From positions 251,909 through 315,908 of the forward strand of contig MFOC01000007.1 of assembly GCA_001782235.1 (NCBI GenBank): DNA of 64,000 nucleotides. The letters run 5' to 3'. The translations under genes were made by a program, and so were the position numbers. Within the stretch, counting starts at the first letter, position 1. Each line of letters begins with the position of its first letter. Source of the stretch: Candidatus Levybacteria bacterium RIFCSPHIGHO2_02_FULL_40_18 (lineage in GTDB: Bacteria > Patescibacteriota > Microgenomatia > Levybacterales > GWA1-39-11). Shown in pieces: positions 1 through 60,635 of this stretch. The notes below the pieces were generated by a model. The model was not told the DNA's origin and did not search any database. It saw nothing but the letters and a program-made list of their open reading frames with translations.

Positions 1-532
1 TATCTTTCGCCTTTATGGCGGACAACTTGACTGCTCTCTCCAAAGCAGGGCCGAAGTTCTCGCCTAGCATGTCGTTCCAGCCAGGAGTGGAGTTGTTTGC
101 GTCTCCGGACACGTCCTTGCTGCTTGCGCAGCGGTATTTGAAGCAGACGTTATAGAAGTTGCGCATGGCAGTTTCGGACTGGTTGAGGGTCCAATAAGCC
201 GTCACCGCCAACTCAATCTGCACTCCCGATTTGGTGGTCGCCGTAATCAGCTGAGTGCGGTCGCCTACAACGTTTCCGTTGGCATCCGTCACTGTCCCGT
301 CGCTGACGATGTAGTTCCGCGAGTTGCACGGAATAAAGGAGACGTCCTCGTTGTCGCCCTTGTCGACCTTCTGACCCTGGTACTCAATCCGGTGCAGTTT
401 GGAGTCGCGGCCTTTCGCGCCGTCTCCGACTACGAAGGCACAACTTGCGGTTGTAGTCGACGTATCAGTGCAGGCGAGGAGAAGCAGAGCAACTGCAAGT
501 ACAGCCACTACCACTATCGCTGACCTAAGCAT
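1..532 (-). CDS. putative lipoprotein, N-terminal portion; gene runs off window start
   Basis: Minus-strand frame open from the ATG (530-532) to position 1. GGAGGA sits 5 nt upstream of the ATG. N-terminus MLRSAIVVVAVLAVALLLLAC is a signal peptide plus lipobox Cys. About 60% GC. Not in the ORF track because there is no in-window stop. Confidence 0.5.
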   Translation of the reverse strand, partial: MLRSAIVVVAVLAVALLLLACTDTSTTTASCAFVVGDGAKGRDSKLHRIEYQGQKVDKGDNEDVSFIPCNSRNYIVSDGTVTDANGNVVGDRTQLITATTKSGVQIELAVTAYWTLNQSETAMRNFYNVCFKYRCASSKDVSGDANNSTPGWNDMLGENFGPALERAVKLSAIKAKD

Positions 533-558
533 TGTATTCCTCCTTCGACTATTCGTGC

Positions 559-1860
559 TTAGTTCTGCACGGCAGGAACAGACCTGGCGATTTCCAGAGG
601 CGCCTCCTGAGCGGCTTCTCGGGCAAGTTCGAGCACGTGCTCGATCTGCGCCTGGTTTACCCTCTGGGTAGCCGCATCGATTACCTCCTTGCCCGTGATC
701 ATCGCCTGCTCGAGCTCGAGCCTCTTCTGCTGACCGAGTTCGATAGCCTGAACGATTCCGTCGGCCTGCGCCGCCAGAGACTCGCTCCATGCCACTACGG
801 TGCGGGGGTCCAGAGCCGGCGTCGCCAGCGCGTTTGCTATCATCGGCACGGTGGCCTTTGCAGCATTTGCGAACAAGGTCAGCACCTGGTTGTAGGTATC
901 CTCGACGGCCGCGTTGAACTGTAGCGCCTGTTCGGCGTCACCCAACGTGAGCCAGATAAGGATAGTTCCTTTCATGGTCGGGATCGTGATGTCGACGGTC
1001 TGGTCAATCCGGGCTGACAGACCCACTTGGACTACTCGCATGTTGCGAGTCTGCGGGGCCATAGCCCATGCAACCCAGAGCCGTCCCTTGAACGCGATGA
1101 TCCTGTTCTCAAGAAGCGTGACGAGCTCCGAAATCCGAGCCTGCTCTTCGCCGCCGCGGTCTCCCATGTTGGAATCGCCGACAACGATGCTGTCAGCCTG
1201 CTCGGCAGCCAAGTCGCGGATGATCTCCATGACGCCGATCTTGTAGATCAGCTTGTTGATCTCCTGCTCATTGAGCTTATAGAACTCGTCGTAGTAGGCT
1301 ACATTCCTGAGCAGCTGCTCCTGTTTGCCATCGAGTTTTTCGATGACCCAGTCGCACTGCTCCTCGAGTCCGCGGATATCGTCGAGGAACTCCTCGAGGA
1401 ATGTCCTGCCGAGACGGAAGATGCCCAGGAAGCGGCCCTTAGCCTTCTTGTACTTCTCGAGTGCTTTGGGGTCGCTGGGGTCGTACCTGCGGCCAATACC
1501 GCGCATACGCCGGGAAAGATCCCTCATGGCGTCACTCAGCTCCGGAATGTCGATAGGGTGGCGCTCGCTAAGCATCCGGTCGTTTAACCGGTTGATTGAC
1601 TCGAGCGCATCGTTTCCGAAGACCGCCAACACTTGAGTGTTGGACAACATCTTCGGTAGGACATCCGTAGCTTCTGCCTGTGCCCTGACGAGAGTGTCGC
1701 CTTCCAGTAATTGCCGGCAAACGAGCAGTTCTCGCTTCTGAGGGCTAACAGACAGAGCAGAAAGCTCTGTTACTTGCGAAGTCGGTCGGGGCTCCGCCGG
1801 AATGGTGGCCGCAAACTGCGGGGACACTACGATGGTGGGTTGGGTCGGCTGTTGAGTCAT
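559..1860 (-). CDS. TelA-like toxic anion resistance family protein
   Basis: 433-aa ORF in the high-GC block. Predicted to be mostly helical, and its length and pattern are typical of TelA/KlaA (YaaN-like) proteins. Assigned from recalled family resemblance, not from an alignment. Confidence 0.5.
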   Translation of the reverse strand: MTQQPTQPTIVVSPQFAATIPAEPRPTSQVTELSALSVSPQKRELLVCRQLLEGDTLVRAQAEATDVLPKMLSNTQVLAVFGNDALESINRLNDRMLSERHPIDIPELSDAMRDLSRRMRGIGRRYDPSDPKALEKYKKAKGRFLGIFRLGRTFLEEFLDDIRGLEEQCDWVIEKLDGKQEQLLRNVAYYDEFYKLNEQEINKLIYKIGVMEIIRDLAAEQADSIVVGDSNMGDRGGEEQARISELVTLLENRIIAFKGRLWVAWAMAPQTRNMRVVQVGLSARIDQTVDITIPTMKGTILIWLTLGDAEQALQFNAAVEDTYNQVLTLFANAAKATVPMIANALATPALDPRTVVAWSESLAAQADGIVQAIELGQQKRLELEQAMITGKEVIDAATQRVNQAQIEHVLELAREAAQEAPLEIARSVPAVQN

Positions 1861-1883
1861 GTCGGTACTCCTTTAGCTTGTGG

Positions 1884-2879
1884 TCAGCGATATCGCTGGG
1901 CCTGCAGAATGTTGGTGTTAACCCTGAAGTCAAAAAGATCTTCGGCACTGCCGCGCCTGATCGACTCCAGGACGTACTCGGAGAAGTCGGTGATTGACTC
2001 CTTTCCCCTCTGTAGCTCTTCGCCCCAATTGGTGTAGTAGCGCGGATTGTCCTGGACATCGGCATACTTAGCCAGGACTTGAGCGACCTCATTCAAGCGG
2101 TCTCTAAAGAAAAGGGAATCCCTCTTCTTATCCTTACTACTTGAGGAGAAGTATCTCTCGATATCCACACACAGCTGGTAGAGCGCATCTTTGAGCTCCG
2201 AGTCTTTGATCTGCCAGCGTTCTCTTACGATTTTCGCGAGCAGTTCCTTGACTTGGTCGGGTGCTCTGAAGCGCGTTTTTTCCGTGCTAGACTCTGTTTC
2301 CTGGCTGGCGACAACCGCAAGAACTGCGATGACGACGAGCACAATGACGACAGCAATGCCTAGCCATACGAACCACGACAGACCTCCTTTCTCAGGTGAA
2401 TCGAGCGGCGGAGGGTTTAATTGGGGATTCTCCCTCTGCCAGATGTGCATGTTCTGCACGAACGTGCCCAGTGTCGTCACCGGATCGTTAGAGACGCTTC
2501 TTGCGCGCCTCATTTGATCGGCAGCAACTCCTGCAGGTAGAGTTGGCGCATATCCTACCACATTGTTGCCTACCGCAAGTCCGATGATTCGCCGGTTTCC
2601 CAGCTCTTCGGACAGGCGACTTGCAATTGTGGTGATATCCGCTCCAAGACTTGATTCTGCCGCAGCCGGTAGCATAACCAAGACGATGTTGTCGTCTTTG
2701 TTGAGCCTTTCCTGCAATTTGCCGGCTGTGTCTTTGTCAGTCCCTTCGGTGCCGGGAGCCACGTAGACGGGCGCATTCTTTAAAGCCTGCGCTGCGTCTG
2801 TGATGTAGTCGGCAAAGACTACGTGGGGCGCTAAAAGAGCCAGAACTGCTAAAGCAACGGCTTTAGCTATGTGCTTCAT
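1884..2879 (-). CDS. membrane protein adjacent to TelA: signal peptide, exported domain, one TM helix, cytoplasmic C-terminal domain
   Basis: 331-aa ORF with N-terminal signal-like segment (AVALAVLALLAPHVVFA) and a central hydrophobic helix (WFVWLGIAVVIVLVVIAVLAVVA). Tightly linked to the TelA-like gene on the same strand. A possible XpaC/TPM-like relationship is not verified. Confidence 0.4.
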   Translation of the reverse strand: MKHIAKAVALAVLALLAPHVVFADYITDAAQALKNAPVYVAPGTEGTDKDTAGKLQERLNKDDNIVLVMLPAAAESSLGADITTIASRLSEELGNRRIIGLAVGNNVVGYAPTLPAGVAADQMRRARSVSNDPVTTLGTFVQNMHIWQRENPQLNPPPLDSPEKGGLSWFVWLGIAVVIVLVVIAVLAVVASQETESSTEKTRFRAPDQVKELLAKIVRERWQIKDSELKDALYQLCVDIERYFSSSSKDKKRDSLFFRDRLNEVAQVLAKYADVQDNPRYYTNWGEELQRGKESITDFSEYVLESIRRGSAEDLFDFRVNTNILQAQRYR

Positions 2880-3340
2880 CCCGTCCTCTCCTTTCTCTTC
2901 GGCTTTTGCCGAAAGCTAGGGTCTTTTGTTCGAAGAAATCTTCGATCAAGGACCTAAGTTCATACTTAATGCGATTCTGCTTCTCCTTAATTTGCTATCC
3001 ATTTTTAATCTTTCTCCTTGTTTTTTATTTGCCTAAGGCAATCCGATCCCGATTTCTGTCAGGACGAGAGTGCCGTAGGCAAGATTCGCTCTAGCTTTTG
3101 AGCGAAGTTCAAGAAGATTCCACAGTCAAATTGTCAAAGAGCAACTTTAAGCGATTTAAACTTAAGCAATTTTAGTTTTGGCGCTTAAAGACAAATATAT
3201 TGTATTTAAAATCAGCAAGCTTTTCAGTTCTTTTGAGAACTATTGAACGTGCTGACAGTAACAGTGGATTATATCCAAAACAGGATAAAGAATCAAATAT
3301 TATAGGGTAATACTTTTACTTTCCGGGGGATTTCTGTAAG

Positions 3341-3388: not shown

Positions 3389-3417
3389 AAGAGGTGGTCT
3401 TGGAACCACCTTTTTTA
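3389..3417 (+). terminator. intrinsic terminator-like hairpin in the nusA leader (possible attenuator)
   Basis: AGGTGGT-cttgga-ACCACCT stem-loop followed by TTTTTT, about 20 nt after the predicted transcription start and 40 nt before the nusA ATG. Confidence 0.5.
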
Positions 3418-3455
3418 TACTTAATACATAATACTTAGTACTTAATACTAAAAAT

Positions 3456-4541
3456 ATGGCAGTTGTACAAAGATCGGAATTTGCGTTAGCTTTAAATCAA
3501 ATAGCCTCGGAACGAGGCGTCGATCCTTCTATTGTGCTTGAAACAATGAAGGGCGCAATTTTGGCTGCCTATAGAAAGGATAATGTTGTCCCGGACGAAG
3601 ACCTCGAAAAATATTCGGTTGAATTGAATGAAAACACGGGCGAGACAAAGATTTTAAAAGAAGGAAAGGATGTTACGCCCCCCGGATTTGGAAGAATTGC
3701 AGCCCAAACCGCAAAACAAGTATTGCTTCAGAAAATTCGCGAGCGTGAGAAGGATGCAATAATCGATGAGTATTCAAAGAGAATTGGGACGGTTGTAAAT
3801 GGAATGATCCTGCGATTTATAGGCCCTGCGATTGTTGTTGATATTGGAAAAGCAGAGGCCGTTATTTCGCCGGCTGATAAAATCCTAAACGAACAATACT
3901 TTCTTAATAAAAAGATGTCGGTATATATTAAGGAAATAGATGAGGAGAGGCGGGAGATCATGGTATCAAGATCCGATCCGAGGCTAATTGAAGGGTTACT
4001 CCGACGCGAGGTGCCGGAGGTCAATTCTGGCGCAGTTACCATCAAAAAAGTTGTTCGCGAGCCGGGAAATCGAGCAAAAATTGCAGTTTATTCGGAGCAG
4101 TCAGGTATTGATCCGGTTGGGTCATGCGTTGGGCAAAAAGGTGTTCGTATTCAGGCAGTAATCGATGCTTTGGACGGCCTAGAGAAGATTGATGTGATTC
4201 AGTGGAATCCTGATCCTCTGAAGTTTATAACCAACGCGCTTTCTCCTGCAAAAAATCTTACAGTTGAAATTGATGAAGAAACAAAAACCGCAAGAGTGCG
4301 CGCGCCTCGTGAAGAATTGCCGCTAATCATTGGCCGAGAGGGACAGAATGTTCGTTTGGCATCGAAATTGAGTGAATATAATATTGAAGTTGAAGGAGAC
4401 GAATCTATGACAATACAGGATTCGGGGCAAGCTGAGGAGCCCACTGAGGACAAAAAGACAAAAAACGAAACTCCTAAGACTAGAAAATCCAAGAAGACAA
4501 AAACAAAAGAAGATGATTCCGAACAGGGGAAAAGTGAATAA
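3456..4541 (+). CDS. nusA: transcription termination/antitermination factor NusA
   Basis: 361 aa. N-terminal NusA domain followed by S1/KH-like regions. Conserved position upstream of infB. Confidence 0.85.
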   Translation: MAVVQRSEFALALNQIASERGVDPSIVLETMKGAILAAYRKDNVVPDEDLEKYSVELNENTGETKILKEGKDVTPPGFGRIAAQTAKQVLLQKIREREKDAIIDEYSKRIGTVVNGMILRFIGPAIVVDIGKAEAVISPADKILNEQYFLNKKMSVYIKEIDEERREIMVSRSDPRLIEGLLRREVPEVNSGAVTIKKVVREPGNRAKIAVYSEQSGIDPVGSCVGQKGVRIQAVIDALDGLEKIDVIQWNPDPLKFITNALSPAKNLTVEIDEETKTARVRAPREELPLIIGREGQNVRLASKLSEYNIEVEGDESMTIQDSGQAEEPTEDKKTKNETPKTRKSKKTKTKEDDSEQGKSE

Positions 4542-4571: not shown

Positions 4572-6089
4572 ATGGATAAAAAAAACAAAAATCAAACCCT
4601 TCAATCGGACTCAGGGCAAGCAAATGAATTTGCCCCGGTCGTTTCTGTATTAGGTCACGTTGATCACGGCAAAACGAGCCTATTGGATAAAATTCGTGAA
4701 ACTCAGATTGCAGCAAAAGAGCATGGCGGAATTACGCAAAAGATAGGCGCCTCACAAATCGAAATAAAACACGAGGGCAAACTTCGCAAAATCACTTTTA
4801 TCGACACTCCTGGCCATGAGGCCTTCTCAAACATGCGCTCGCAAGGTGTAAATGCCGCGGACATAGCGCTTCTTGTGATCGCGGCAGACGATGGGATAAA
4901 ACCCCAGACAAAAGAGTCAATAGAGAAAATAATTGAGGCAAAGCTCCCTTACATTGTAGTTTTCACAAAAATTGATCTTGAGACCGCAAATATTGAACGG
5001 GTTAAGCAAGGGATCGTGAAGGAAGGAATTTTGCTTGAAGGCCTGGGTGGAAATGTTCCATATATTGGGGTATCTGCAAAAACCGGCGAGAAAATTGGCG
5101 ATCTGCTGGATTTAATAGTACTGGTTTATGATCTTTCAGGAATAAAAAAAGATGAAAATGCGGATTTTGAAAGCGTTGCTGTTGACGCAAAGCTTGATAA
5201 AAAAAGAGGGGTCGTCGCTACAATTGTCGTAAAATCCGGAACTTTAAGAATCGCCGATAAAATATTTGCACATGGGCGTGAAATCGGAAAAGTCAGAGCG
5301 ATTATTGACACATTTGGTAAAAACGTCAAAGAAGCCGCTCCAGGTGACGCGGTCGAGCTTCTTGGCTTATCGGAGGTTCTGCCATCGGGTACAGTTATTT
5401 CAAACAAGCAAATTGAGCCTCAAGTTCGGGAAGAAACCCTTAAGCCGGTTGCTAAAACCCCGGTAGATATTCGCGAGTTTTTAAAATCCCGTGATCAGGA
5501 TTTTGTGCCGATCGTTTTAAAGACGGAAACAAGCGCAGAGATGGAAGCGATCAAAAATTCCCTTCCCTCAACCCCGATTGGATCGGGGTCAAAAATTAAG
5601 GTGATTTATGAAGGTCAGGGAGACGTAGCGGTTTCAGACGTGTTGCTAGCCAAAGATTTTTCCGCATTAATTATCGGATTTAACGTAGGTATAAATTCCG
5701 ACGCAAAGTTTTTGGCAGAGAGCGAACATGTTTTTAACAAGTCCTATCGAGTTATCTATGAACTGCTTGACGAGCTTTCGCAATTAATTGTTGCAGTAGG
5801 TACAAAGGAACAGGAAAAAGAATTAGGTAGAGGAACAATTCTTGCCTCGTTTTTAGGAACAACTGGTCCAATTTTAGGTACAAAAGTAACTTTTGGGAGG
5901 CTTGCTGTCGGAGATAAAATAAGGATAGCTCGTGGTGAAAAAGTGCTAGGAGAGGCTTCGATAATATCAATAAAAAAAGGGAAAGAAGACATAAAATTGG
6001 CCTCAAAGAATGACGAATGCGGCATAATGATAAGGCCTGAAGTTGACTTTGCAAAAGACGATGCTATAATAGCCTATAGCAAGACGTAG
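4572..6089 (+). CDS. infB: translation initiation factor IF-2 (short form)
   Basis: GTPase G1 motif [14 protein letters not shown] and DTPGHEAF. Follows nusA. Confidence 0.85.
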   Translation: MDKKNKNQTLQSDSGQANEFAPVVSVLGHVDHGKTSLLDKIRETQIAAKEHGGITQKIGASQIEIKHEGKLRKITFIDTPGHEAFSNMRSQGVNAADIALLVIAADDGIKPQTKESIEKIIEAKLPYIVVFTKIDLETANIERVKQGIVKEGILLEGLGGNVPYIGVSAKTGEKIGDLLDLIVLVYDLSGIKKDENADFESVAVDAKLDKKRGVVATIVVKSGTLRIADKIFAHGREIGKVRAIIDTFGKNVKEAAPGDAVELLGLSEVLPSGTVISNKQIEPQVREETLKPVAKTPVDIREFLKSRDQDFVPIVLKTETSAEMEAIKNSLPSTPIGSGSKIKVIYEGQGDVAVSDVLLAKDFSALIIGFNVGINSDAKFLAESEHVFNKSYRVIYELLDELSQLIVAVGTKEQEKELGRGTILASFLGTTGPILGTKVTFGRLAVGDKIRIARGEKVLGEASIISIKKGKEDIKLASKNDECGIMIRPEVDFAKDDAIIAYSKT

Positions 6090-7157: not shown

Positions 7158-7301
7158 ATAATAGTTATAAGAAAATAGAAATTAGTAATAGAAAATGCCT
7201 GCCTGCCGGCAGGCAGGGAGAATAGAAAATAGTTAAACAAAAAAAACAAATTTCCAATTTCTAATTTCCATTACTATTTTCCAATATCTAACAACCAATT
7301 T
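7158..7301. repeat. MITE-like inverted-repeat element, copy A (carries the nested 20-nt palindrome)
   Basis: Shares the arms GAAAATAG..GAAATTAGTAATGGAAA and CCAATTTCCAATATCTAATTTCCATTAC with copies at 18014, 41558 and 44491. Confidence 0.6.
7198..7217. repeat. 20-nt perfect GC-rich palindrome CCTGCCTGCCGGCAGGCAGG (copy 1)
   Basis: Identical to 10195-10214. Here it sits inside the MITE-like element. Confidence 0.8.
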
Positions 7302-7691: not shown

Positions 7692-7782
7692 ATAGATCAT
7701 AGATCATAGATTTTAGATCTTAGATCATAGTAAATACAAAAACTAAATCTAAAAAGAGCCACAAAAGTCCCGAAAAAAATTA

Positions 7783-10194
7783 ATGAAAAGATCGTCAAAA
7801 ACGCTTCAAATTAACGGAACAACCTTAACACTTGAAACCGGCGTACTTGCACAACAAGCAACGGCTTCGGTTTTGGGCAGGATGGGAGATACAATGGTGG
7901 TTGCAACCGTTGTAATGGGTCGTGAAGATTCAACTTTAGGATATTTTCCTCTCAGTGTTGAGTATGTAGAAAGGCTTTATGCTGGAGGAAGAATAAAGGG
8001 GAGCCGTTGGGTAAAGCGTGAAGGAAGGCCGTCTGATGAAGCAATTCTAACGGCACGAATGATTGACCGTTCAATTCGCCCGCTTTTCCCAAAAGAACTT
8101 AAAAAGGATGTTCAGGTAGTTATAACCGTATTGTCTGTGGATCAGGAGAATAAACCCGATATATTGGCAGTAAACACTACCGTGGCAGCGCTGGCGATAT
8201 CAAAAATTCCGTGGGGGGGACCGATCGGAGCAACAAGGATAGGATTAGTATCAAAAGGTGAACAGCAGGAATTCATTGTGAATCCGACAGCATCAGAGGA
8301 GGAGCTATTGGAGCTCGATCTTATTGTTTCGTCCCGGCGCGACCGAACAGTTATGCTTGAGGCAGGAGCAAAACAAATAAGAGAGGATTTGGTTGAGCAG
8401 GGTATTAAAATGGCAGGAGAGTGGAACAATAAAATTGTTGACTTAATTGAACAATGGGCTGAAGAGGTTGGGGAGAAAAAGATAGAACTTCCAAAAGATG
8501 AGAAAGCGGAGGAAGCAAGACTTCTAATTGAGAAGTCTTACAAAGACCGTATGCAAAAAATTATTTCGGAGGGTATAACTCGCGAAGTTGCCGGGGTTTT
8601 TGATGAAATTATTGACGAAATTGAGGAGCTTGAAAAAGAAACTATTGAGCCCCGCGAAAAAATTGCCGAAGCCGTAGATTACGTATTCAAAAAGGCTGTT
8701 CGAGACATGATTCTTTCCGAAGGAAAAAGACCGGACGGAAGGAAACTTGATGAGATTCGCCCGGTAACAGCCGCAGTTGGCGTTTTGCCAAGAACACACG
8801 GTTCGGCAATTTTTTCAAGGGGCGAAACTCAATCTTTAACAGTTGCGACACTGGGTCCCTCTTCTTTGGAGCAGCTTATTGAAGGGCCGGAAGGGGAAGA
8901 AACTAAGCGATATATGCACCATTACTCCTTTCCCCCATACTCGGTTGGCGAGGTGGGAAGGCTTGGATCGCCTAACAGACGTGAGGTTGGGCACGGAGCG
9001 CTTGCCGAACGCGCGCTTGAACCTGTTATACCGCCTGTCTCGACATTTCCATATGCAATCCGTGTGGTATCTGAAATTATGTCTTCAAATGGTTCAACAT
9101 CTCAGGCTGCAGTTTGCGGCTCCACATTATCCCTGATGGACGCAGGTGTTCCTTTAGTTGCGCCGGTTGCAGGTATCGCGGTAGGACTAATGACCTCTGG
9201 TGAGAAATATGCTTTACTCACTGACATTATTGGTCTTGAGGATTTTTCAGGAGACATGGACTTTAAAGTTGCGGGGACAGAGAAAGGAATCACGGCAATA
9301 CAGCTTGATGTAAAAATTGAAGGATTAACAGAACAAATGATCTCAGAAACTTTAGTGGTGGCGCGTAAGGCAAGACTTGAAGTTCTTGATAAGATGCTTT
9401 CCGTTATTCCTGAGTCAAGAAAAGATGTTTCAAAATTTGCTCCAAAGATTAAGACCATTCAAATTAATCCTGAAAAAATAGGGGATGTCATAGGATCAGG
9501 GGGCAAGACTATTCGAAACATCTCGACTCAAACTGGCGCAACTGTAGATGTTGAGGAGGATGGGACCGTGTCTATTTCCTCATTGGATGAGGAGGCGGTT
9601 GAGAAGGCTGCTCATTGGGTGGACCTAATCACGCGGGAACTTCAAAAAGGAGAGGTTTTTGAAGGAACGGTTAAAAGAATTGTTAATTTTGGGGCATTTG
9701 TTGAAATAGTTCCGGGCAAAGAAGGGTTGGTACATGTGTCAGAAATGGCACCTGAGTACGTTAAAGATCCGCATGATGTTGTTGAGATAGGTCAAAAAGT
9801 TAAGGTAAACGTAAAAGAAATTGATGACGTAGGGAGGATTAATCTTTCAATGTTGTTCGGCGAAAGACCGGCAAGACCTGAAGGCAGTCCTGAGGGGTCG
9901 GACCGAGCCTTTGGCGAGGGAGACCGGCTGCGAGAGGAGCGAGACAGCGGTGGGAGCCGAACATTTCGACCTCGTGAAGAAAGATTCGAACGAGGCGAAA
10001 GACCGCCAAGAAGGAGCTTCGGAGGTCCGAGATCCTTCGATAGGACTCCCTTCGAAACTCAGGGCAGGCAGGGCAAGCGAGAAGGCGCAAGACCATTCAG
10101 ACCAGGCGGAAGACCATTTAGACGCGGTTCAAGACCTAGCGGTCCCGCGCCGTTTGATTCCCTCCGTCCAGGAGGGACCCGTACCCGAAGATAA
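7783..10194 (+). CDS. pnp: polyribonucleotide nucleotidyltransferase (PNPase) with Arg/Gly-rich C-terminal extension
   Basis: 803 aa with two RNase PH-like domains, KH and S1. A C-terminal ~110-aa RG/RP-rich tail is encoded by a GC-rich segment (9860-10190). Confidence 0.9.
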   Translation: MKRSSKTLQINGTTLTLETGVLAQQATASVLGRMGDTMVVATVVMGREDSTLGYFPLSVEYVERLYAGGRIKGSRWVKREGRPSDEAILTARMIDRSIRPLFPKELKKDVQVVITVLSVDQENKPDILAVNTTVAALAISKIPWGGPIGATRIGLVSKGEQQEFIVNPTASEEELLELDLIVSSRRDRTVMLEAGAKQIREDLVEQGIKMAGEWNNKIVDLIEQWAEEVGEKKIELPKDEKAEEARLLIEKSYKDRMQKIISEGITREVAGVFDEIIDEIEELEKETIEPREKIAEAVDYVFKKAVRDMILSEGKRPDGRKLDEIRPVTAAVGVLPRTHGSAIFSRGETQSLTVATLGPSSLEQLIEGPEGEETKRYMHHYSFPPYSVGEVGRLGSPNRREVGHGALAERALEPVIPPVSTFPYAIRVVSEIMSSNGSTSQAAVCGSTLSLMDAGVPLVAPVAGIAVGLMTSGEKYALLTDIIGLEDFSGDMDFKVAGTEKGITAIQLDVKIEGLTEQMISETLVVARKARLEVLDKMLSVIPESRKDVSKFAPKIKTIQINPEKIGDVIGSGGKTIRNISTQTGATVDVEEDGTVSISSLDEEAVEKAAHWVDLITRELQKGEVFEGTVKRIVNFGAFVEIVPGKEGLVHVSEMAPEYVKDPHDVVEIGQKVKVNVKEIDDVGRINLSMLFGERPARPEGSPEGSDRAFGEGDRLREERDSGGSRTFRPREERFERGERPPRRSFGGPRSFDRTPFETQGRQGKREGARPFRPGGRPFRRGSRPSGPAPFDSLRPGGTRTRR

Positions 10195-10214
10195 CCTGCC
10201 TGCCGGCAGGCAGG
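10195..10214. repeat. 20-nt perfect palindrome CCTGCCTGCCGGCAGGCAGG (copy 2), immediately after the pnp stop
   Basis: Identical to 7198-7217. Possible terminator-like hairpin, but no U-tract follows. Confidence 0.8.
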
Positions 10215-10253
10215 GTCTTGTCCGCCCTAAAATTTTAGTGTTATACTTTTTGT

Positions 10254-15473: not shown

Positions 15474-16112
15474 GTGTCTTTTATGAGGAAGGTTAGCGAT
15501 ATATTAAGACAAAAAAGAGAAGAAAAGGAGTTGGATCTTGATACTGTTTCTAGCGATACAAAAATAAAGAAAGAGTTTCTTGCCGCAATCGAAGAAGGTA
15601 ATTTTCAAAAGCTTCCCTCGGGAAGTTATGCGTTGGGTTTTGTTAAAAACTACGCGAAATATCTGGGTATTTATGATTCGTCAATTGCGCCTTTGTTTCG
15701 AAGAGAGTATAAATCATCGCGTAATATTCCAATAGTGCCTGAATTTAGAAAAACTCAACATAAATTTGGCAAAAATTTTTTTTTAAATTCCCGCAGTTTT
15801 CTGATCATAGCCGTAATTTTTGTAATACTGGGATACATATTTTTCCAATATAACTCCATAATTTATTCTCCGCGGCTTTCGGTCACAAAACCTCAGGCAG
15901 GACAAGAAATTACGGGAAATGTTGTTGAGGTTGAGGGTAAAACTAACCCGTACGCAACTGTCTTAATTGATGGAGACGAGGCCTATGTAACACTTTCTGG
16001 GGATTTTAAAAAATCAATTTTTGTTTTCTCAGGCAACAAGAAAATAGAAATTGTCGCAAAAAACCGATTCGGAAAAGAGTCCCGCAAGGAGATCAACATC
16101 AAGGTTAAATAA
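15474..16112 (+). CDS. RodZ-like membrane protein with N-terminal XRE-type HTH
   Basis: N-terminal HTH (FLAAIEEGNFQKLPSGSYALGFVKNYAKYLGI) followed by a TM helix and an extracytoplasmic domain. Confidence 0.55.
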   Translation: MSFMRKVSDILRQKREEKELDLDTVSSDTKIKKEFLAAIEEGNFQKLPSGSYALGFVKNYAKYLGIYDSSIAPLFRREYKSSRNIPIVPEFRKTQHKFGKNFFLNSRSFLIIAVIFVILGYIFFQYNSIIYSPRLSVTKPQAGQEITGNVVEVEGKTNPYATVLIDGDEAYVTLSGDFKKSIFVFSGNKKIEIVAKNRFGKESRKEINIKVK

Positions 16113-16223
16113 GTTATAAGTTTTAAGTTGTAAGATGTAAGTAATTTCTTAAATCATAAATCTTACATCTTAGATACTAACTTCATTCTTGCTTTTAAGC
16201 TTATTTCGTGATAATTTAGTAGC

Positions 16224-18013: not shown

Positions 18014-18138
18014 TAGAAAATAGTTATTAGAAAACAGAAATTAGTAATGGAAAGTAGAAAATAGAAAACAGTTTTAAGGAGCCAATTTCCAATATCTAAT
18101 TTCCATACCATTTTCCAATTTCTCATAACCAATTTCTT
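18014..18138. repeat. MITE-like inverted-repeat element, copy B, ending 3 nt before the nth ATG
   Basis: Same arms as copies A, C and D. Confidence 0.6.
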
Positions 18139-25050: not shown

Positions 25051-26325
25051 ATGGATGAAAAGAATTTGGCGCTGGAGGCAATAAGAAAAAAATTGCTTGG
25101 CAAAAAGCTCTCATATAAAGAGATATATGCCGTTATGGATGAGATTGCAAAAGATAGGCTTGGGGATGTTTTGACAACTTATTTTGTTGCTTCAGGCTAT
25201 TCGGAAGGCTTTTCTGATGAGGAGTTGTACTATCTCACCCGCGCAATGGTTGAGACTGGCGAGACGCTTCACTTCCGCGGATTGGTTGCTGACAAGCATT
25301 CGATAGGCGGAGTTCCTGGGACCCGAGTCACATTGATAATCGTTCCAATTATTGCTTCCGCCGGATTTAAAATACCCAAAAGTTCATCACGGGCTATTAC
25401 CACTCCTGCGGGAACCGCAGACGCAATGGAAGTTCTTGCGCCCGTTGCTTTCACAAAAGAAAAAATTTACAAAATTGTAAAAAAAACAAACGCATGTATT
25501 GTCTGGGGAGGAAGTTTTAAAATTGCCCCCGCAGATGATGAAATTATAAAAATAGAGGAGCCGATTTTGTTTGAGAGCTATGACAAAATAGTTGTTTCCG
25601 TTATGGCAAAAAAAGTGGCATTTGGCGCAACCCATGTCGTAATAGATTTGCCATATGGTAAATCGGTAAAAATACATAGAGTTGAAGATGCGAAGATTTT
25701 AAAAAGAAAATTTCAATTCTTAGGAAAGAAATTTGACATGAAGATAGATTCATTTATTCATAGAGTTGATGGCCCGGCTGGAGATGGAATAGGGCCCTTG
25801 CTTGAGGCACGCGATTCATTAAAAGTGCTTGAGCAAACAAAGGATAGGCCAATTGAACTTGAGAAGCAGGCACTTTCTTTGGCCGCAAAACTTCTTGAAC
25901 TGGTGCTTTTAAACTCCCCTTCAAAAATTAAGTTGGGCTATAAAAAGAACTACAAAAACACAAGGGAATGGGCAAAGGATATTTTGGTAGACGGACGCGC
26001 CCACACGAAACTTTTAGAAATTATAGAAGCACAAGGGGGAAATTCTAAAATCAAGTCTTCTGATCTTGCCCCCGGAAAATATTGTTCTACACTTGAAGCG
26101 GGATTCAACGGAAAGGTCAGTGAGGTAATAAGCAAGAATATAACAACTATTGCAAGAATCCTTGGCGCACCAGAAGATAAACGCGCAGGAATAGTTCTTC
26201 ACAAAAAAGTAGGTCAAGAAGTTAAAAAGGGAGATGAGCTTGCCTGCCTTTATAGTGATAGCAAATACAAACTTCGTGAAGCTCAAGACACCCTAGACCT
26301 CTTCCCTATATTTGAAATCAAATAA
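25051..26325 (+). CDS. AMP/thymidine phosphorylase family protein (glycosyl transferase family 3)
   Basis: DKHSIGGVPGTRVTLIIVPIIAS matches the phosphate/ribose-binding region of AMP phosphorylase and DeoA. Confidence 0.6.
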   Translation: MDEKNLALEAIRKKLLGKKLSYKEIYAVMDEIAKDRLGDVLTTYFVASGYSEGFSDEELYYLTRAMVETGETLHFRGLVADKHSIGGVPGTRVTLIIVPIIASAGFKIPKSSSRAITTPAGTADAMEVLAPVAFTKEKIYKIVKKTNACIVWGGSFKIAPADDEIIKIEEPILFESYDKIVVSVMAKKVAFGATHVVIDLPYGKSVKIHRVEDAKILKRKFQFLGKKFDMKIDSFIHRVDGPAGDGIGPLLEARDSLKVLEQTKDRPIELEKQALSLAAKLLELVLLNSPSKIKLGYKKNYKNTREWAKDILVDGRAHTKLLEIIEAQGGNSKIKSSDLAPGKYCSTLEAGFNGKVSEVISKNITTIARILGAPEDKRAGIVLHKKVGQEVKKGDELACLYSDSKYKLREAQDTLDLFPIFEIK

Positions 26326-26357
26326 AGAACTCACCCCCGCTTTCTCCACCCCTGTTC

Positions 26358-26414
26358 ACTTCGCTTGCAGGCGGGCTCCCTCACTTCATTCAGTCCGCCC
26401 CTCGGGGGTGGACT
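26358..26414. repeat. GC-rich intergenic repeat copy 1, with a 10-bp-stem hairpin at 26392-26414
   Basis: CTTGCAGGCGGGCTCCCTCACTTCATTCAGTCCGCCCC. Second copy at 39851-39896. Hairpin is AGTCCGCCCC-tcg-GGGGTGGACT. Confidence 0.6.
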
Positions 26415-26441: not shown

Positions 26442-27383
26442 GTGAGAAAACTATTTATAGCTTTTATTCTCCTCGGCCTTTTAGCAGCAGGAACGTTTGC
26501 CTATTGGACAATCGGCAACCGGCCGGCAAACCTTTCCGATAAATCAACTAAGATATTCGTAATTCAAAAAGGAGAGTCAATTCGGGAAGTAGGAAGTTCT
26601 CTTAAGAGAGAAGGCTTAATAAAAGATCCGGTGGTTTTCTTTTTATATATAAAGCTCTACGGACAAGATCGTAAAATTCAGGCAGGAGACTATAGACTTT
26701 CTTCCTCAATGACCTTAGCCGCGGTTATTGACGAATTAGGCCACGGAAAACTGGACCGTTGGATAACAATTCCCGAAGGGTATAGAGCTGAAGAAATTGC
26801 CGACGTACTTGAGAAGAACATCCCTTCTTATGACGAGAGCTGGAGAGAAGAACTTAACAAAAATGAAGGTTATCTTTTCCCGGATACTTATCTTATTCCT
26901 CGCGATGCGGATATTGATATGGTTATCTCGACCATGAAGAACAATTTCAACCACAAGATTCAGGAGGCGGGCTTGACGCTTACCGATCAGAATCTTTCAA
27001 GAACCATAATCCTTGCCTCTCTAATTGAGCGCGAGGCCAAAATAAATGAAGAAAAGCCTTTAATCGCGGGCGTAATTAGTAATCGACTAAAAAGGGGGAT
27101 GGCACTTGATATAGACGCAACAATCCAGTATGTCAAAGGTTCCCCCGATAAGTGGTGGCCGCAGATAACATCTTCTGATTACAAAAGTGCCGATTCTTTA
27201 TATAACACCTATCTATACTCTGGTCTTCCACCGGGTCCAATCGCAAACCCAGGAATTGAAGCAATAAAAGCGGCGCAAAACCCACAATCTCATTCATACT
27301 ACTTCTATATTCATTCGGGAGGTAAAATTTATCCTGCTAAAACTATCGAAGAACACCAGAAGAACATTCAAAAGTACCTCTAA
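26442..27383 (+). CDS. mltG: endolytic murein transglycosylase MltG (YceG family)
   Basis: N-terminal TM helix with GDYRL, EGYLFPDTY and GLPPGPI motifs. Confidence 0.8.
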   Translation: MRKLFIAFILLGLLAAGTFAYWTIGNRPANLSDKSTKIFVIQKGESIREVGSSLKREGLIKDPVVFFLYIKLYGQDRKIQAGDYRLSSSMTLAAVIDELGHGKLDRWITIPEGYRAEEIADVLEKNIPSYDESWREELNKNEGYLFPDTYLIPRDADIDMVISTMKNNFNHKIQEAGLTLTDQNLSRTIILASLIEREAKINEEKPLIAGVISNRLKRGMALDIDATIQYVKGSPDKWWPQITSSDYKSADSLYNTYLYSGLPPGPIANPGIEAIKAAQNPQSHSYYFYIHSGGKIYPAKTIEEHQKNIQKYL

Positions 27384-30951: not shown

Positions 30952-30954
30952 AAA

Positions 30955-30996
30955 ATCGGGGCCCCCATTTTGCTTGCCAAAATGGGGAAAAACATT
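30955..30996 (+). promoter_or_regulatory. conserved hairpin element (copy 1) immediately upstream of the rpoC start
   Basis: AATCGGGGCCCCCATTTTG-cttgc-CAAAATGGGGAAAAACATT. 10-bp stem with a G-rich 3' arm 9 nt before the ATG. Confidence 0.55.
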
Positions 30997-39744: not shown

Positions 39745-39850
39745 TTTTCTTTGTACTTTTGCGCCGCCAAAAGTACCAAAATCTCTCGCCATGTCTCGTC
39801 TCATGCTTTAAATGTTTGAGTTTGTGTCGGCACCCACCGCTGTCTTCGGG

Positions 39851-39896
39851 CTTCGCCCTTGCAGCCGGGCTCCCTCACTTTGTTCAGTCCGCCCCC
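39851..39896. repeat. GC-rich intergenic repeat copy 2
   Basis: CTTCGCCCTTGCAGCCGGGCTCCCTCACTTTGTTCAGTCCGCCCCC. About 85% identical to 26358-26401. Confidence 0.6.
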
Positions 39897-41557: not shown

Positions 41558-41640
41558 TTAGAAAATAGTTATTGGAAAATGGAAATTAGTAATGGAAATA
41601 TGGAAAATAGAAAATAGTTAAAATAAAAATACCAATTTCT
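41558..41640. repeat. MITE-like element copy C (left arm plus truncated right arm)
   Basis: TTAGAAAATAGTTATTGGAAAATGGAAATTAGTAATGGAAA...CCAATTTCT. Confidence 0.55.
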
Positions 41641-44490: not shown

Positions 44491-44620
44491 TTAGAAAATA
44501 GTTATTAGAGAATGGAAATTAGTAATGGAAATTTGAAAATAGAAAATAGATAAAAACACCAATTTCTAATATCTAATTTCTATTACCATTTTCTTACTTC
44601 TTACAACCATTTTCTATTTT
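44491..44620. repeat. MITE-like element copy D, ending 6 nt before the next ATG
   Basis: Both arms present. Confidence 0.6.
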
Positions 44621-48120: not shown

Positions 48121-48286
48121 CCTCGGGAAGTGTTGCATTTGGGTTCAAAACATTATATAATCTTTACTTGCATGTCCAAACTATTGATAAACTCACTAGT
48201 TACATGATTTCCGAGTCAATCCCTGGGACGTGAAGGAACGGCTCGAATGAGCCGTTTTTTAGTGCTCGAAGGGTCTTTAATAAATT

Positions 48287-49240
48287 ATGCAATCTTTAAT
48301 TGGCAAGAAAATTGATCAAACACAAGGGTTTTTAGAGGATGGGACGCGCGTTCCGCTCTCAATTATTTCCGTGGCAGGAAATGTCGTGATACAGGTCAAG
48401 ACAGGCGACCACGAGGGATATAATTCAATTCAACTTGGATTTGGAACTTGGAAGCGCCCAACCAAACCAATGGCAGGACACATTAAAAAAGCGGGGTTAA
48501 AAAAAATGCCTCGCTTTTTTCGTGAAATAAGGGCAGACGAAGCGCCAGCCTCGCCGAGTCTAGGCGGGCCGAATCTTGCACCAGGTTCGGCGATTTTAGT
48601 TTCAGAAGTTTTCGAGCCCGGCGACATAGTTGATGTTACTGGAATTTCAAAGGGCAAAGGTTTTGCAGGAGTTGTTAAGCTTCATGGATTTCATGGAGGT
48701 CCCAAAACTCACGGGCAATCTGACAGGCATAGGGCCCCGGGAGCAATCGGTTCAGGAACAACTCCGGGTAGAGTTTACAAAGGCAAAAGAATGGCAGGGA
48801 GAATGGGAAATGAGCGCGTGACTATCAAGAACCTTGAGGTTTTAGATGTGAAGGATGATACGATTTTCGTTCGAGGCCTAATTCCTGGAGTAAAAGGTTC
48901 GATCGTTACCATTACAAAAGTAGGGAAGAATAAGAAATTTAAGCCACTATGGGGCGGACTGAGCCCTGGCTCCGGCGAGGGCGAAGTAGCCGTGCGAGGA
49001 GAGCGAGACAGCGGTGGAACTGAAGAGTCGGATGTTCAGACGGCAGTAGATAATGTTTCCGAAGCTGAAAAAGCTGTCAAGACACCAGAGGAAGTAGAAA
49101 CAGCGCAAGACACAGTTGCTTCGGTTGCAAATTCGAGTGAAGGAAAACCTGCAGCCACTGACGGCACTGAGGAATCCGCTGAAAACACTGAAAAAAGTTC
49201 GCCAGGAAAGCAAGAGGAAGGAGAAGGTAATGCCAGTTAA
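48287..49240 (+). CDS. rplC: 50S ribosomal protein L3 with ~100-aa acidic C-terminal extension
   Basis: L3 core followed by an E/T/S-rich tail. The tail contains the 43-nt GC-rich module shared with the pnp tail. Confidence 0.85.
   Translation: MQSLIGKKIDQTQGFLEDGTRVPLSIISVAGNVVIQVKTGDHEGYNSIQLGFGTWKRPTKPMAGHIKKAGLKKMPRFFREIRADEAPASPSLGGPNLAPGSAILVSEVFEPGDIVDVTGISKGKGFAGVVKLHGFHGGPKTHGQSDRHRAPGAIGSGTTPGRVYKGKRMAGRMGNERVTIKNLEVLDVKDDTIFVRGLIPGVKGSIVTITKVGKNKKFKPLWGGLSPGSGEGEVAVRGERDSGGTEESDVQTAVDNVSEAEKAVKTPEEVETAQDTVASVANSSEGKPAATDGTEESAENTEKSSPGKQEEGEGNAS
48974..49017 (+). repeat. GC-rich in-frame module (family b) in the rplC tail
   Basis: GGCGAGGG...GCGAGGAGAGCGAGACAGCGGTGG. About 88% identical to pnp 9914-9953. 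Confidence 0.6.
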
Positions 49241-49997
49241 AAAAATCCCCGCTTCGCCAAGGCTTCGCGGGGCAAGCAAAACTACAGCTCAAAGGCCGAC
49301 TTCGATTAGATCGAGGTTAAAAACTGCGAAGGGGGCTTCGAAAGATTCAAAGTTTAGTGTTCCTGTGGTCGATCTGACCGGGAAGAGAAAAGGGAGCGTT
49401 GAGCTTCCGAAGGAGATTTTTGGGGCAAATGTAAATGAAAAATTAATGGCGCAGGCTGTTCGTGTCTATCTTGTTAATCAAAGACAGGGGACTGCTTCGA
49501 CAAAAACACGAGGAGAAGTCACCGGTTCGACCAGAAAAATTTATAGACAAAAGGGGACGGGACGAGCTCGCCATGGGTCTATCACTGCGCCAATATTTCG
49601 TGGCGGAGGAATTGTCTTTGGTCCAAGAGTCCGAGGTTTCTCTTTGAAATTATCAAAGCAGATGAAGAAAAAAGCTTTATCAAGCGCTTTAGCTCAAAAA
49701 CTTCTTGATCAAAAAGTTTCTGTAGTTGATTTAGAAGGCGTTAGTGGTAAAACCCGCGAGCTTGCCCAACTTTTCAAAAACCTTAAACTTTTAGATAAAG
49801 AAAAGAAGGACAACCAAGTTCTGTTTGTTTCAGCTTCGAAAGGAGAAGCAAAAAGGGCAGCCAGAAATATCCGTGGCATAACCGTTAGCAACGTAGAGTC
49901 AATAAATACATATGAAGTTTTGGCTAATAAATACCTTATTTTAGCTCGCGATGCAGTTCCAAATCTTGTAAATCATTTTATAAAAAATAATTTATGA
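49230..49997 (+). CDS. rplD: 50S ribosomal protein L4 (with basic N-terminal extension)
   Basis: L4 core from ~KFSVPVVDL. Start at MPVKK overlaps the rplC stop by 11 nt. The track start at 49116 overlaps rplC. Confidence 0.85.
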
Positions 49998-51061: not shown

Positions 51062-51143
51062 AATTATTGATTATTTATTATAGATTATAGATTATTGTTC
51101 GAACAAATAATAAATAATAAACAATAAATAATATATAAAAAAT

Positions 51144-51431
51144 ATGAGTAGATCACTTAAGAAGGGTCCGTTTATCGATCCAAAATTGATGAAGAAAGTT
51201 CAGGTTCAAAAAGCTGCAGGAGGTACAATTGAGCCAATAAAAACGTGGGCACGGGCCTGCCAGATTCCTCCGGAATTTGTTGGACATACTTTCTTGGTTC
51301 ACAATGGGAAGAATTTTATAACCGTTAAGGTTGTCGAGAATATGGTTGGACATCGTTTAGGTGAATTTTCGCCGACTCGCATTTTCCGTGGACACGGAAG
51401 AGTCGTAGCACGAGAAATAAGCAAAACATAG
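51144..51431 (+). CDS. rpsS: 30S ribosomal protein S19
   Basis: [15 protein letters not shown] start and conserved order. Confidence 0.95.
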
Positions 51432-51512: not shown

Positions 51513-51953
51513 ATGGAATATATAGCAATAGCAAAAAATATAAAAATGTCGCCTCGTAAAGTGAGGCTGATCGTAGATTCGGTCAAGAAGCAAAACCTAA
51601 ACAAGAGTCTATCAACGCTATCTCTTATGTCAAAAAGAGCCGCAATGCCAGTAAAAAAAGCGATCGATTCGGCAATTGCAAACGCGGTTAATAATTTCAA
51701 AGTAAATCGCGAAGCACTTTCTATCCGAGACATAATTGTAACAGAAGGAATGAGATTAAAAAGATATCATTTTGCCGCTCGCGGTCGCACTCGACCGTAT
51801 AAAAGACGAACAAGCCACATCCGAGTGATTCTAACGGATAACAGTTCGGTAATAACTAAAAAACCTGCAACCACTGAAAACACTGAAAAATTAACTGAAG
51901 GCACTGTAAAAAACAGTGATAAAACAGCGGTTGCAAGGGAGGGAAGCAAATAG
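51513..51953 (+). CDS. rplV: 50S ribosomal protein L22
   Basis: Conserved order and core. Confidence 0.9.
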   Translation: MEYIAIAKNIKMSPRKVRLIVDSVKKQNLNKSLSTLSLMSKRAAMPVKKAIDSAIANAVNNFKVNREALSIRDIIVTEGMRLKRYHFAARGRTRPYKRRTSHIRVILTDNSSVITKKPATTENTEKLTEGTVKNSDKTAVAREGSK

Positions 51954-53585: not shown

Positions 53586-53627
53586 GTTAGCTAATAGCCA
53601 AACGCTAAAAGCTAATAGCTAAATAAT
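53586..53627 (+). promoter_or_regulatory. conserved leader module upstream of rplN (near-identical to 52617-52657)
   Basis: GTTAGCTAATAGCCAAACGCTAAAAGCTAATAGCTAAATAAT. Confidence 0.5.
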
Positions 53628-54048: not shown

Positions 54049-54384
54049 ATGATTATGAAAATAAGAAAAGGAGATACAATCAAGGTTCTAATCGGAAAAG
54101 ATAAGGGAAAGACAGGTCAAGTTGAGCGCATCTTTCCTAAAACTCGAGGCGTGCTTATCCTTTCGGTTAATGAGTATAAAAGGCATGTTAAAAGTAGAGC
54201 GAGGAATCCTGCCTCGCGGCAAGGCGGGCAAAAATCGGAAATTATTACAATCACTAAACCTTTGCCTATATCAAATGTTGCTCTAATCTGTCCCAAGTGT
54301 AAAAAGCCGACTCGTATAGGTTTTCAAATAGAAAAAGGGAAAAAAATTCGAATATGCAAAAAATGCAGTAAAGCAATCGACTAA
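54049..54384 (+). CDS. rplX: 50S ribosomal protein L24 with four C-terminal Cys (CPKC..CKKC)
   Basis: KOW motif GKDKGKTG. The C-terminal hairpin carries a CxxC-x17-CxxC pattern. Confidence 0.85.
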
Positions 54385-54517: not shown

Positions 54518-54556
54518 GCTAGGAACTAGCAACTAGCAACTAGTGACTAGGAGTAT

Positions 54557-56284: not shown

Positions 56285-56640
56285 GAAAAGAAGAAAAAAT
56301 CAAAAAAATGAGAAAATTGAGAAGGATAAAAAGAGTTCGAAGGAAAATATTGGCAAACAAAAGACTGCCAAGACTTACAGTTTTTCGTTCGAATAAATAC
56401 ATTTATGCCCAGATTATAGATGACAAGTCTGGTAAGTCAATCGTCTTTGCAAGTGAAAAAGAAATAGATACTGATAAAGCAAAAAAAACTGAAAAAGCTG
56501 CGATTCTCGGCCGGATTCTTGCTCAAAAAGCAAAAAAGAAAAAAATAGATAAAGTCATATTTGATAAAGGAAGTTACAAGTATCATGGAAGGATAAAAGC
56601 GCTCGCTGAGGGTGCTAGAGAAGGAGGTCTCGTATTTTAG
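56281..56640 (+). CDS. rplR: 50S ribosomal protein L18
   Basis: Conserved order and core. Confidence 0.9.
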   Translation: MRKEEKIKKMRKLRRIKRVRRKILANKRLPRLTVFRSNKYIYAQIIDDKSGKSIVFASEKEIDTDKAKKTEKAAILGRILAQKAKKKKIDKVIFDKGSYKYHGRIKALAEGAREGGLVF

Positions 56641-56670
56641 ATGTAAGATCTAAGATTTAAGATGTAAGTT

Positions 56671-57129: not shown

Positions 57130-57131
57130 TC

Positions 57132-57174
57132 GGGGCCCCCATTTTGCATCGCCAAAATAGGGAAAACAAAAAAT
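57132..57174 (+). promoter_or_regulatory. conserved hairpin element (copy 2) upstream of rplO
   Basis: AATCGGGGCCCCCATTTTGC-atc-GCCAAAATAGGGAAAACAAAAAAT. Confidence 0.5.
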
Positions 57175-58892: not shown

Positions 58893-58959
58893 TATAGAGT
58901 ATTGCGTATTGAGTATCGAGTATCGAACAAACTGAATACTGTATGTAGAATACTGATTT

Positions 58960-60606: not shown

Positions 60607-60635
60607 TCCCAGCAAAAAGCCATATTGCGACAGAA

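Follow-up and report, generated by a model that had tools for sequence, protein, structure and literature searches.

In-frame repeats inside genes

In-frame 'selfish DNA' inside essential genes has been documented so far mainly in Rickettsia. As summarized in PMC10969869, the Rickettsia palindromic elements (RPEs) described by Ogata et al. (2000, Science; 2002, Genome Res) are short dispersed repeats of ~100–150 bp in a small, AT-rich genome. According to that summary, they lie in frame in many unrelated housekeeping genes, with the open reading frame (ORF) kept and the added peptide compatible with protein function; they are present in some orthologues and absent from others, and no transposase is known for them. 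The same behaviour was found in a bacterium of the Candidate Phyla Radiation (CPR) with a genome of ~1 Mb, Candidatus Levybacteria bacterium RIFCSPHIGHO2_02_FULL_40_18. In the 64,000-nt stretch analysed here (assembly GCA_001782235.1, contig MFOC01000007.1, positions 251,909–315,908; hereafter the window), the C-terminal tails of polynucleotide phosphorylase (PNPase, gene pnp) and ribosomal protein L3 (gene rplC) carry two copies of one dispersed repeat family, which occurs in some Candidatus Levybacteria (CPR/Microgenomates) genomes. The repeat is likely to be a mobile, structured and probably selfish element, RPE-like in its behaviour, with copies that disordered stretches of proteins tolerate and that are translated there.

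The likeness to RPEs, as these are outlined in the summary cited above, is one of behaviour, and the family is set apart from them by its description. Multi-copy dispersal in a small, AT-rich genome, in-frame insertion in unrelated genes and lineage-specific gain are common to both, and no transposase is known for either. The single long palindrome of ~100–150 bp with a conserved peptide is not found in the Levybacteria element, which measures 63–105 nt and has two local, variable hairpins between invariant blocks. Translation of its copies appears to run through several frames and either orientation, which leaves no single conserved peptide, and its host phylum is CPR Levybacteria. The family is new: although its behaviour is of a known kind (in-frame selfish repeats), its RNA-like architecture is distinct and the clade that hosts it is new.

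[quoted passage not shown] Unlike MITEs, the Levybacteria element has neither terminal inverted repeats nor a target-site duplication at three comparisons of filled with empty sites. Unlike REPs, which are 20–40 nt long, extragenic and associated with REP-associated tyrosine transposases (RAYTs), it has no conserved GTAG/CGTC head. More than one-third of its copies are intragenic, and its conservation lies in unpaired junctions rather than in a palindrome, which separates it from both groups. In yeast mitochondria, mobile GC clusters occur together with derivative 'byp' elements that are skipped by the ribosome and are not in frame. Both there and here, GC-rich hairpins have spread in an AT-rich genome and landed in protein-coding genes; in contrast to byp elements, no intragenic copy of the Levybacteria element leaves the frame or contains a stop codon, an indication of ordinary translation.

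A dispersed repeat shared by the pnp and rplC tails

Both genes were identified from their ORFs and homologues. The pnp gene (7783–10194, plus strand) codes for a PNPase of 803 aa with an R/G/P/E-rich, low-complexity tail from ~9859, and rplC (48287–49240, plus strand) codes for an L3 protein of 317 aa with an acidic tail from 48953 that AlphaFold2 predicts to be disordered. The original prediction placed a shared GC-rich segment in frame in both tails, and the ORFs bear out the frame; alignment of 9930–9953 with 48994–49017 bears out the 22/24 identity of the 24-nt core. The sequences it quoted are present, and the rplC position 48974 is correct; the pnp start was off by one, as GGCGAGGG begins at 9913 and not at 9914. 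Within the core, the exact 17-mer GAGCGAGACAGCGGTGG (9937–9953, with its twin at 49001–49017, both on the plus strand) is the conserved 3' block of the repeat. It occurs at these two positions only in the window, and shuffles gave an expectation of 0.06 matches even at ≤3 mismatches. By itself the 17-mer is weak evidence, suggestive and not compelling, because the window holds ~15 further exact repeats of ≥17 nt, mostly from intergenic repeat families, and blastn-short reached E = 0.001 only with a tail-sized query.

The segment noticed earlier is only the 3' half of a larger GC-rich repeat. Homology reaches further 5', to 9894 in pnp (GGGGTCGGACCGA) and to 48950 in rplC (GGGGCGGACTGA). The upstream GGCGAGGG blocks that had been aligned with each other are not homologous, being the conserved GAGGGAG core in pnp and the 3' arm of the first hairpin in rplC. 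Blastn-short with the pnp tail also matched the minus strand at 39827–39876, an intergenic region that has a block in common with 26364–26401, which is intergenic as well. When the four window sites were aligned, the similarity extended 5' to a block GGGG(T)CGGAC(T/C)GA, which the original prediction had left unaligned.

Copies beyond the window were collected by pattern scans. A metagenome scan with the central and 3' blocks of the repeat yielded 17 contigs from groundwater/aquifer metagenomes (Hainich, Rifle and others). A scan of genome contigs with the looser pattern GGGGCGGACTGAN{5,30}GAGGG gave mostly chance matches in GC-rich genomes and, among the matches listed, one real copy on a Levybacteria contig (L005; comparison loci are denoted by L numbers). 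The consensus reads GGG(U/G)CGGACUGA, a variable hairpin (Pa), GAGGGAG(A/C)CCGGCUGCGAG, a second variable hairpin (Pb) and GAGACAGCGGUGG, with the 5' block spelled GGG(U/G)CGGAC(U/C)GA in the family definition and a 3' extension (G/A)(A/U)GCCGA in many copies. The three purine-rich blocks are near-invariant, and the two hairpins vary in sequence and length yet keep their stems; Pa measures 7 to ~50 nt and is often GNRA-looped, and Pb measures 6–20 nt. The repeat is typically ~65 nt long, with a GC content of 62–78% as against ~41% in the host, and of 62–70% for the elements in the 41% GC window. Conservation of the 5' block counts as independent evidence because this block lay outside the search pattern.

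A covariance model (R1) was built from 15 copies of other metagenomes and genomes, none of them from the window, and run on the window with filters off. It returned exactly four significant sites, the next best match having E = 2.8, and recovered 24 copies overall across loci. In a control of 731 kb of unrelated, mostly GC-rich loci the best match had E = 0.32 and none was significant, and a scan of viral contigs gave no copies. Copy P, in frame in the pnp tail, spans 9894–9966 on the plus strand (model match 9894–9956, full length, 74.1 bits, E = 3.5e-12); it encodes GSDRAFGEGDRLREERDSGGSRTF and has a GC fraction of 0.67, the window as a whole having 0.414. Copy L (48950–49020, plus strand, 39.8 bits, E = 8.9e-6) sits in frame where the rplC tail begins and encodes (W)GGLSPGSGEGEVAVRGERDSGG. 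It is partly decayed in the 3' arm of helix 1 and the 5' arm of helix 2, and its first hairpin, GCCCTGGCTCCGGCGAGGGC, matches those of L137, L134 and L133. The remaining two copies are intergenic, on the minus strand and antisense to both of their flanking genes. Copy A (39831–39896, 69.1 bits, E = 3.1e-11) lies between fusA (end 39744) and a DUF433 gene (start 40005) and has 45 nt identical to L005, an unrelated locus in another Levybacteria genome. Copy B (26331–26402, 54.5 bits, E = 1.6e-8), the 3' half of which is degenerate, lies between a thymidine-phosphorylase-like gene (25051–26325) and the next gene (26442–27383).

Selection at the protein level for a module of the ERDSGG type in disordered tails, or plain chance in low-complexity sequence, has in its favour that both tails are of low complexity and that the shared peptide is short. 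However, the 5' block is read in different frames, GGG-TCG-GAC-CGA in pnp and TGG-GGC-GGA-CTG in rplC; owing to a first hairpin of unequal length, it is not until the 3' block that the frames of the two copies agree. The five codons for the shared ERDSG peptide are identical, which exceeds expectation (P ~0.003 under window codon usage). The similarity is therefore at the DNA level and not at the protein level. The motif is missing from the tails of all relatives, and the covariance-model E-values range from 1e-6 to 1e-12. The two non-coding window copies, together with antisense coding copies elsewhere that give unrelated peptides (..PTAVS..SQPGSL.. and ..PPLSR..RSRAPS..), already refute this explanation, to which we assign next to no probability.

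Insertion into existing tails

Codon alignment with L141 and L142 limits the pnp insert to 9895–9966 (72 nt, 24 codons), and alignment with L143 and L144 limits the rplC insert to 48953–49018 (66 nt, 22 codons). These borders are also those of the element. Among PNPases whose tails are full-length, the closest read ..GERPARPEGGPE|RPREERFER.., without the 24 codons of the window, and 119 of 119 listed L3 relatives run from ..KPLW/Y straight into an S-E-rich acidic tail, without GGLSPGSGEGEVAVRGERDSGG. Downstream of the inserts, tail motifs are still in frame and homologous, namely ..APFDSLRP..RR in PNPase and ..TPEEVETAQDTV..GNAS in L3. The acidic tails of L3 relatives are 40–130 residues long, commonly ending in ..EENAS/ENAGK, and Levybacteria PNPases have R/G/P/E-rich tails ending in ..APFDS(L/M)RP..RR. 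Judged from these alignments, both tails are clade-wide and older than the repeat, which supplies 22 of the ~95 residues of the L3 tail and 24 of the ~110 of the PNPase tail.

The idea that the tails were built from a common module thus stands in part: a nucleotide module, and not a convergent peptide, was inserted into both, but the tails themselves were not made from it. A duplication between the two genes does not hold, as both are separate copies of a dispersed repeat with two intergenic copies in the window and many elsewhere.

The L3 insert forms residues 223–244 of the protein. In an AlphaFold2 model based on a 50-sequence alignment, nearly all residues from 219 to the C-terminus have a predicted local distance difference test (pLDDT) score of <50 and no secondary structure, so that the insert lies inside this low-pLDDT tail. 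The window has a counterpart in Candidatus Levybacteria assembly GCA_001782715.1 (contig MFPK01000018.1) and in ENA contigs, and an identical L3 protein was read on 24 contigs (39 index blocks); therefore, the rplC insert is not an assembly artefact. Tryptic-type peptides encoded by the inserts are AFGEGDR and DSGGSR in PNPase and GERDSGGTEESDVQTAVDNVSEAEK in L3.

Further copies lie in or near genes of other genomes. Sense, in-frame copies were found in the C-terminal tail of IF-3 (L132, where the Pfam domains IF3_N and IF3_C are followed by ..SEGARLRVERDSGGA..), in a FemAB-family protein (L125) and in a membrane protein (L133) in which the insert starts with WGGLSPGSG, the same as in L3. Antisense copies lie in frame in an M23 peptidase, just past its N-terminal hydrophobic segment (L129), and in an inter-domain linker of IF-2 (infB, L134), where the 79% identical IF-2 of the window has no copy; another antisense copy lies in an unidentified ORF (L137). 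Non-coding sense copies include the best-scoring ones, located between tRNA genes on the tRNA strand (L135, L126 and L136), and one in the rpsJ–rplC spacer of another Levybacteria genome (L143, 7300–7363), the flanking leader of which can be aligned with the window, where the element is absent. In two species (L130 and L139), a sense copy overlaps the last codons of an orthologous DUF5652 gene.

Genome JACQKO01, the same genome that carries L005, has a PNPase 75% identical to that of the window; it is without the window insert and has its own, antisense copy elsewhere in the tail (L141, 2322–2396, 69.1 bits). At the first pnp tail site the window is filled and L141 and L142 are empty, and at the second L141 is filled and the window and L142 are empty. 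The PNPase tail has been hit twice independently, by the sense copy of the window and the antisense copy of L141. Altogether, five pairs of filled and empty orthologous sites were found (two in pnp, and one each in rplC, the infB linker and the rpsJ–rplC spacer). Density is four copies in the 64 kb of the window and at least two in 15.5 kb of JACQKO01. No R1-type copies were present in 92 kb from five other Levybacteria, including the syntenic nusA–infB–rpsO–pnp and S10-operon regions.

Nine of the 24 copies are intragenic, and all nine are stop-free and keep the frame of the host gene. Three could be sized against empty orthologues, and none of them adds a fraction of a codon: the pnp copy adds 72 nt, the rplC copy 66 nt and the IF-2 copy whole codons too. 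About one-third of the copies are antisense to local transcription. Because of the presence and absence among orthologues, the occurrence in both orientations, the patchy distribution and the in-frame, stop-free survival in disordered segments, the pnp and rplC copies are best regarded as two independent RPE-like insertions into pre-existing tails.

The broader idea that modules feed these tails fared better. Because of the second, antisense PNPase copy and of recurring short GC-rich modules such as ACTCAGGGCARGC (TQGK/SGQA peptides), repeat insertion is seen to contribute recurrently to tail sequence. One such module, ACTCAGGGCA(A/G)GC, encodes TQGK or SGQA peptides at 4420–4436 (nusA tail), 4606–4622 (5' end of infB) and 10058–10080 (pnp tail), and is also found in relatives (P0139, a PNPase, and P0010/L144, an L3). 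In the IF-2 of the window it corresponds to an 8-aa insert, LQSDSGQA, relative to L134. Among other Levybacteria, the peptide PFDRTQGK turns up in the tail of a PNPase and also in that of an L3 protein. These occurrences suggest that further repeat families seed such tails. A 21-nt unit also occurs twice in tandem in the pnp tail (10083–10123; RPFRPGG/RPFRRGS). P0121, a 99% identical PNPase of 796 aa, is without 7 residues in or next to it, so the tail may vary by slippage too.

Two other features adjoin loci with copies. Directly 3' of pnp in JACQKO01 (L141, 2546–5080) lies a diversity-generating retroelement (DGR) with target gene, bAvd and reverse transcriptase. Its variable region (VR, 3078–3214) and template region (TR, 3560–3696) are 85% identical, and a link with the repeat was rejected, as the DGR has its own VR/TR pair, unrelated to the element at 2322–2396. 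The rpsJ–rplC spacer (48121–48286; L143, 7160–7300) has a conserved promoter-like TTGCAT..TATAAT, a leader, and a hairpin with a T-run just before rplC; these features can be aligned between the two species and may represent a ribosomal-protein leader or attenuator.

Possible conserved fold and RNA function

RNAalifold and pair counting support helix 1, GG(U/G)C : G(A/C)CC, in which one pair is U-A in 14 copies, G-C in 10 and broken in none. A C-G/U.G step and a Pa base with the pairs GC, AU, CG and GU are also supported. Paired cells amount to 99.4%, as against 91% in shuffles (0/500 reach the observed value) and 36–61% with the partners slid, in an alignment that was fitted to the model and with a search pattern that fixed part of the conserved blocks. 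Helix 2 is uninformative because it is invariant. Only the strand taken as sense accommodates the U.G pairs and GNRA loops. Hammerhead, hepatitis delta virus (HDV)-like, twister, ZTP, signal recognition particle (SRP), RNase P and 5S RNAs were considered by eye and rejected, as helix order or conserved nucleotides do not fit and cmscan detected none of them.

The main alternative to a selfish repeat is that the element is primarily a functional structured RNA, which could be the gene of a small RNA or a motif acting in cis in processing, stability or protein binding. It would then be co-transcribed with tRNAs and translation genes, and the coding and antisense copies would be by-products or decayed. 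Like the small structured RNAs in Rfam, it has conserved junctions, variable GNRA-capped helices and multiple copies per genome, some of them in tRNA operons. The purine-rich junctions are invariant, many of the variable hairpins are GNRA-capped (GUGA, GUAA, GAAA) and all of these are on one strand, and the U.G, C-G and U-A variation fits that strand only. The position of L135, L126 and L136 on the tRNA strand, the sense copies before rplC (L143) and at the 3' end of the DUF5652 gene in two species, and an apparent excess in translation-related operons (in a small, unsystematic sample) point in the same direction.

Other observations oppose a primary RNA function. Many copies, about one-third, are antisense, including A and B of the window and those in infB, the M23 peptidase gene and the pnp of L141, and the 92 kb of five related genomes that are free of copies include the same operons. 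Neither the window nor 18 loci gave any non-tRNA match to Rfam 15 at the gathering threshold, and at E ≤ 10 the best hits reached 10–13 bits against thresholds of 35–50. Single-sequence folding of the four window copies was no better than that of shuffles, with z-scores between −0.3 and −1.3; only a hairpin in the flank of copy B stood out. Intact sense copies in essential mRNAs set the element apart from Rfam small RNAs and are hard to square with, for example, self-cleaving or terminator activity. On balance, a primary RNA function is a minority possibility, although a real one.

A further reading, of slightly lower probability again, would combine both aspects in a new class of structured RNA. 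Its master copies would be small RNA genes in tRNA operons, spreading via an RNA or single-strand intermediate in the manner of short interspersed nuclear elements (SINEs). The class would be marked by an unvarying purine-rich core, by tandem junctions of the G.A type and by two helices that vary and carry GNRA caps, and would seed peptides in essential proteins. If true, bacteria would have an equivalent of the retroposons derived from tRNA/7SL, or the element would be a ribozyme-like or protein-binding RNA of a new kind.

Mobility, survival and translation

For a mobile, probably selfish repeat, the following course of events is proposed. The element would multiply and move as a non-autonomous unit, probably recognized as a folded single strand of RNA or single-stranded DNA. 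Insertion occurs in both orientations, into spacers and into genes. To judge from the surviving copies, only those that are a multiple of three in length, stop-free and located in disordered tails or linkers would persist in gene-dense genomes, presumably as near-neutral additions. Frame and the conservation of the tails downstream suggest that these copies are translated as 20–35 extra residues, mostly rich in G/E/R/D/S/A.

The inserts could instead go untranslated, either cut out of the mRNA as a mini-intron or intervening sequence, or skipped by the ribosome in the way that GC-rich 'byp' elements are in some yeast mitochondria. The compact, structured form of the elements and their high GC content within an AT-rich genome would suit such a process, as would the intervening sequences that rRNA genes of CPR bacteria are known to carry (bioRxiv 10.1101/2022.01.07.475337). 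Neither excision nor skipping would require a kept frame, however, and for this reason the nine stop-free, in-frame intragenic copies, and the whole codons added by those that were sized, weigh against it. The same holds for CGA: the pnp frame that would read GAC-UGA has CGA, as does the IF-3 copy in the UGA-reading frame, and rplC reads the same block in another frame. We consider removal or bypass highly improbable.

Several observations weigh against a mobile, neutral repeat. No mobilizing enzyme was found, the genes neighbouring the copies being without a consistent transposase, and there are no terminal inverted repeats, since GGGTCGGACTGA at the 5' end is not the reverse complement of GACAGCGGTGG at the 3' end. 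No target-site duplication was seen in the filled and empty comparisons at pnp, rplC and the rpsJ–rplC spacer (the rplC boundary is ambiguous owing to a 3-nt TGG overlap), nor any conserved target motif beyond T or AG before GGG. With neither an enzyme nor these marks, we infer mobility only from the patterns of presence and absence. The combination of invariant junctions with variable, often GNRA-capped hairpins looks more like a functional-RNA core than typical selfish DNA. The invariance is partly an ascertainment effect, since the search pattern fixed parts of the conserved blocks, and the helix-1 change from U-A to G-C could be a single event parting two subfamilies. At the orthologous loci L130 and L139 the element is retained, its core the same and its hairpins different, which suggests constraint at a fixed locus. 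About half of the copies in a small, unsystematic sample lie in translation-related operons (tRNA clusters, the S10/str operon, pnp, infB and infC), an excess that pure neutrality would not predict. Translation, too, is something that we infer from sequence.

Two protein searches had little reach. An in-frame-translation profile used for a peptide census of hosts gave only two spurious small ORFs over elements, and an exhaustive search of representative proteins with the repeat peptides gave one irrelevant protein, the queries being too short for database-scale E-values in both cases. No description of this element in CPR was found in the literature.

A mobile repeat of this kind, affecting PNPase, L3, IF-2 and IF-3 among other proteins and with an apparently conserved RNA-like fold missing from Rfam, would explain concretely how part of the lineage-specific sequence arises in the disordered extensions that CPR proteins typically have. 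For annotators and phylogeneticists it is a caution that such segments are repeat-derived and not homologous protein sequence. The motif is compact and well defined, and its mobility mechanism or RNA function is open to testing.

Other repeats and features of the window

Additional repeats occur near the pnp and rplC genes. An identical 21-nt GC palindrome, CCTGCCTGCCGGCAGGCAGGG, is present at 7198–7218 and 10195–10215, just 3' of the stop codons of a DHH-family gene (end 7151) and immediately after pnp, respectively, with a weaker copy at 54208–54228, and the repeat is probably terminator-like. The GC-rich hairpin CCCCGCTTCGCCAAGGCTTCGCGGGG (49247–49272) lies in frame in the extended N-terminus of rplD and encodes 10 residues, and may be another repeat-derived insert. 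A segment of the L3 tail at 49176–49195 matches 51871–51890, 2.7 kb downstream in the ribosomal protein operon, at 19 of 20 positions (CC(G/A)CTGAAAACACTGAAAAA).

A separate GC-rich palindromic family, AATCGGGGCCCCCATTTTGC..GCCAAAATGGGGAAAAA, occupies 30954–30992, 57128–57166 and 60635–60673. Many intergenic spacers contain period-7 tandem arrays of 4–10 copies, each with a different heptamer (ATACTTA, ATAGATC, TAGAAAA, TAGCTAA, AACTCAA and others). These were located at 3417–3449, 7692–7730, 16109–16142, 18014–18068, 41559–41631, 44492–44550, 51063–51144, 53588–53622, 54519–54543, 56639–56668, 58891–58923 and 59860–59891. They often lie directly upstream of genes, for example nusA and pnp, and some are grouped into larger families, dispersed or inverted. 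Two minus-strand genes (559–1860 and 1884–2879) in the first part of the window (1–2900) have a GC content of ~57% as against ~41% in the rest, which suggests a foreign origin.

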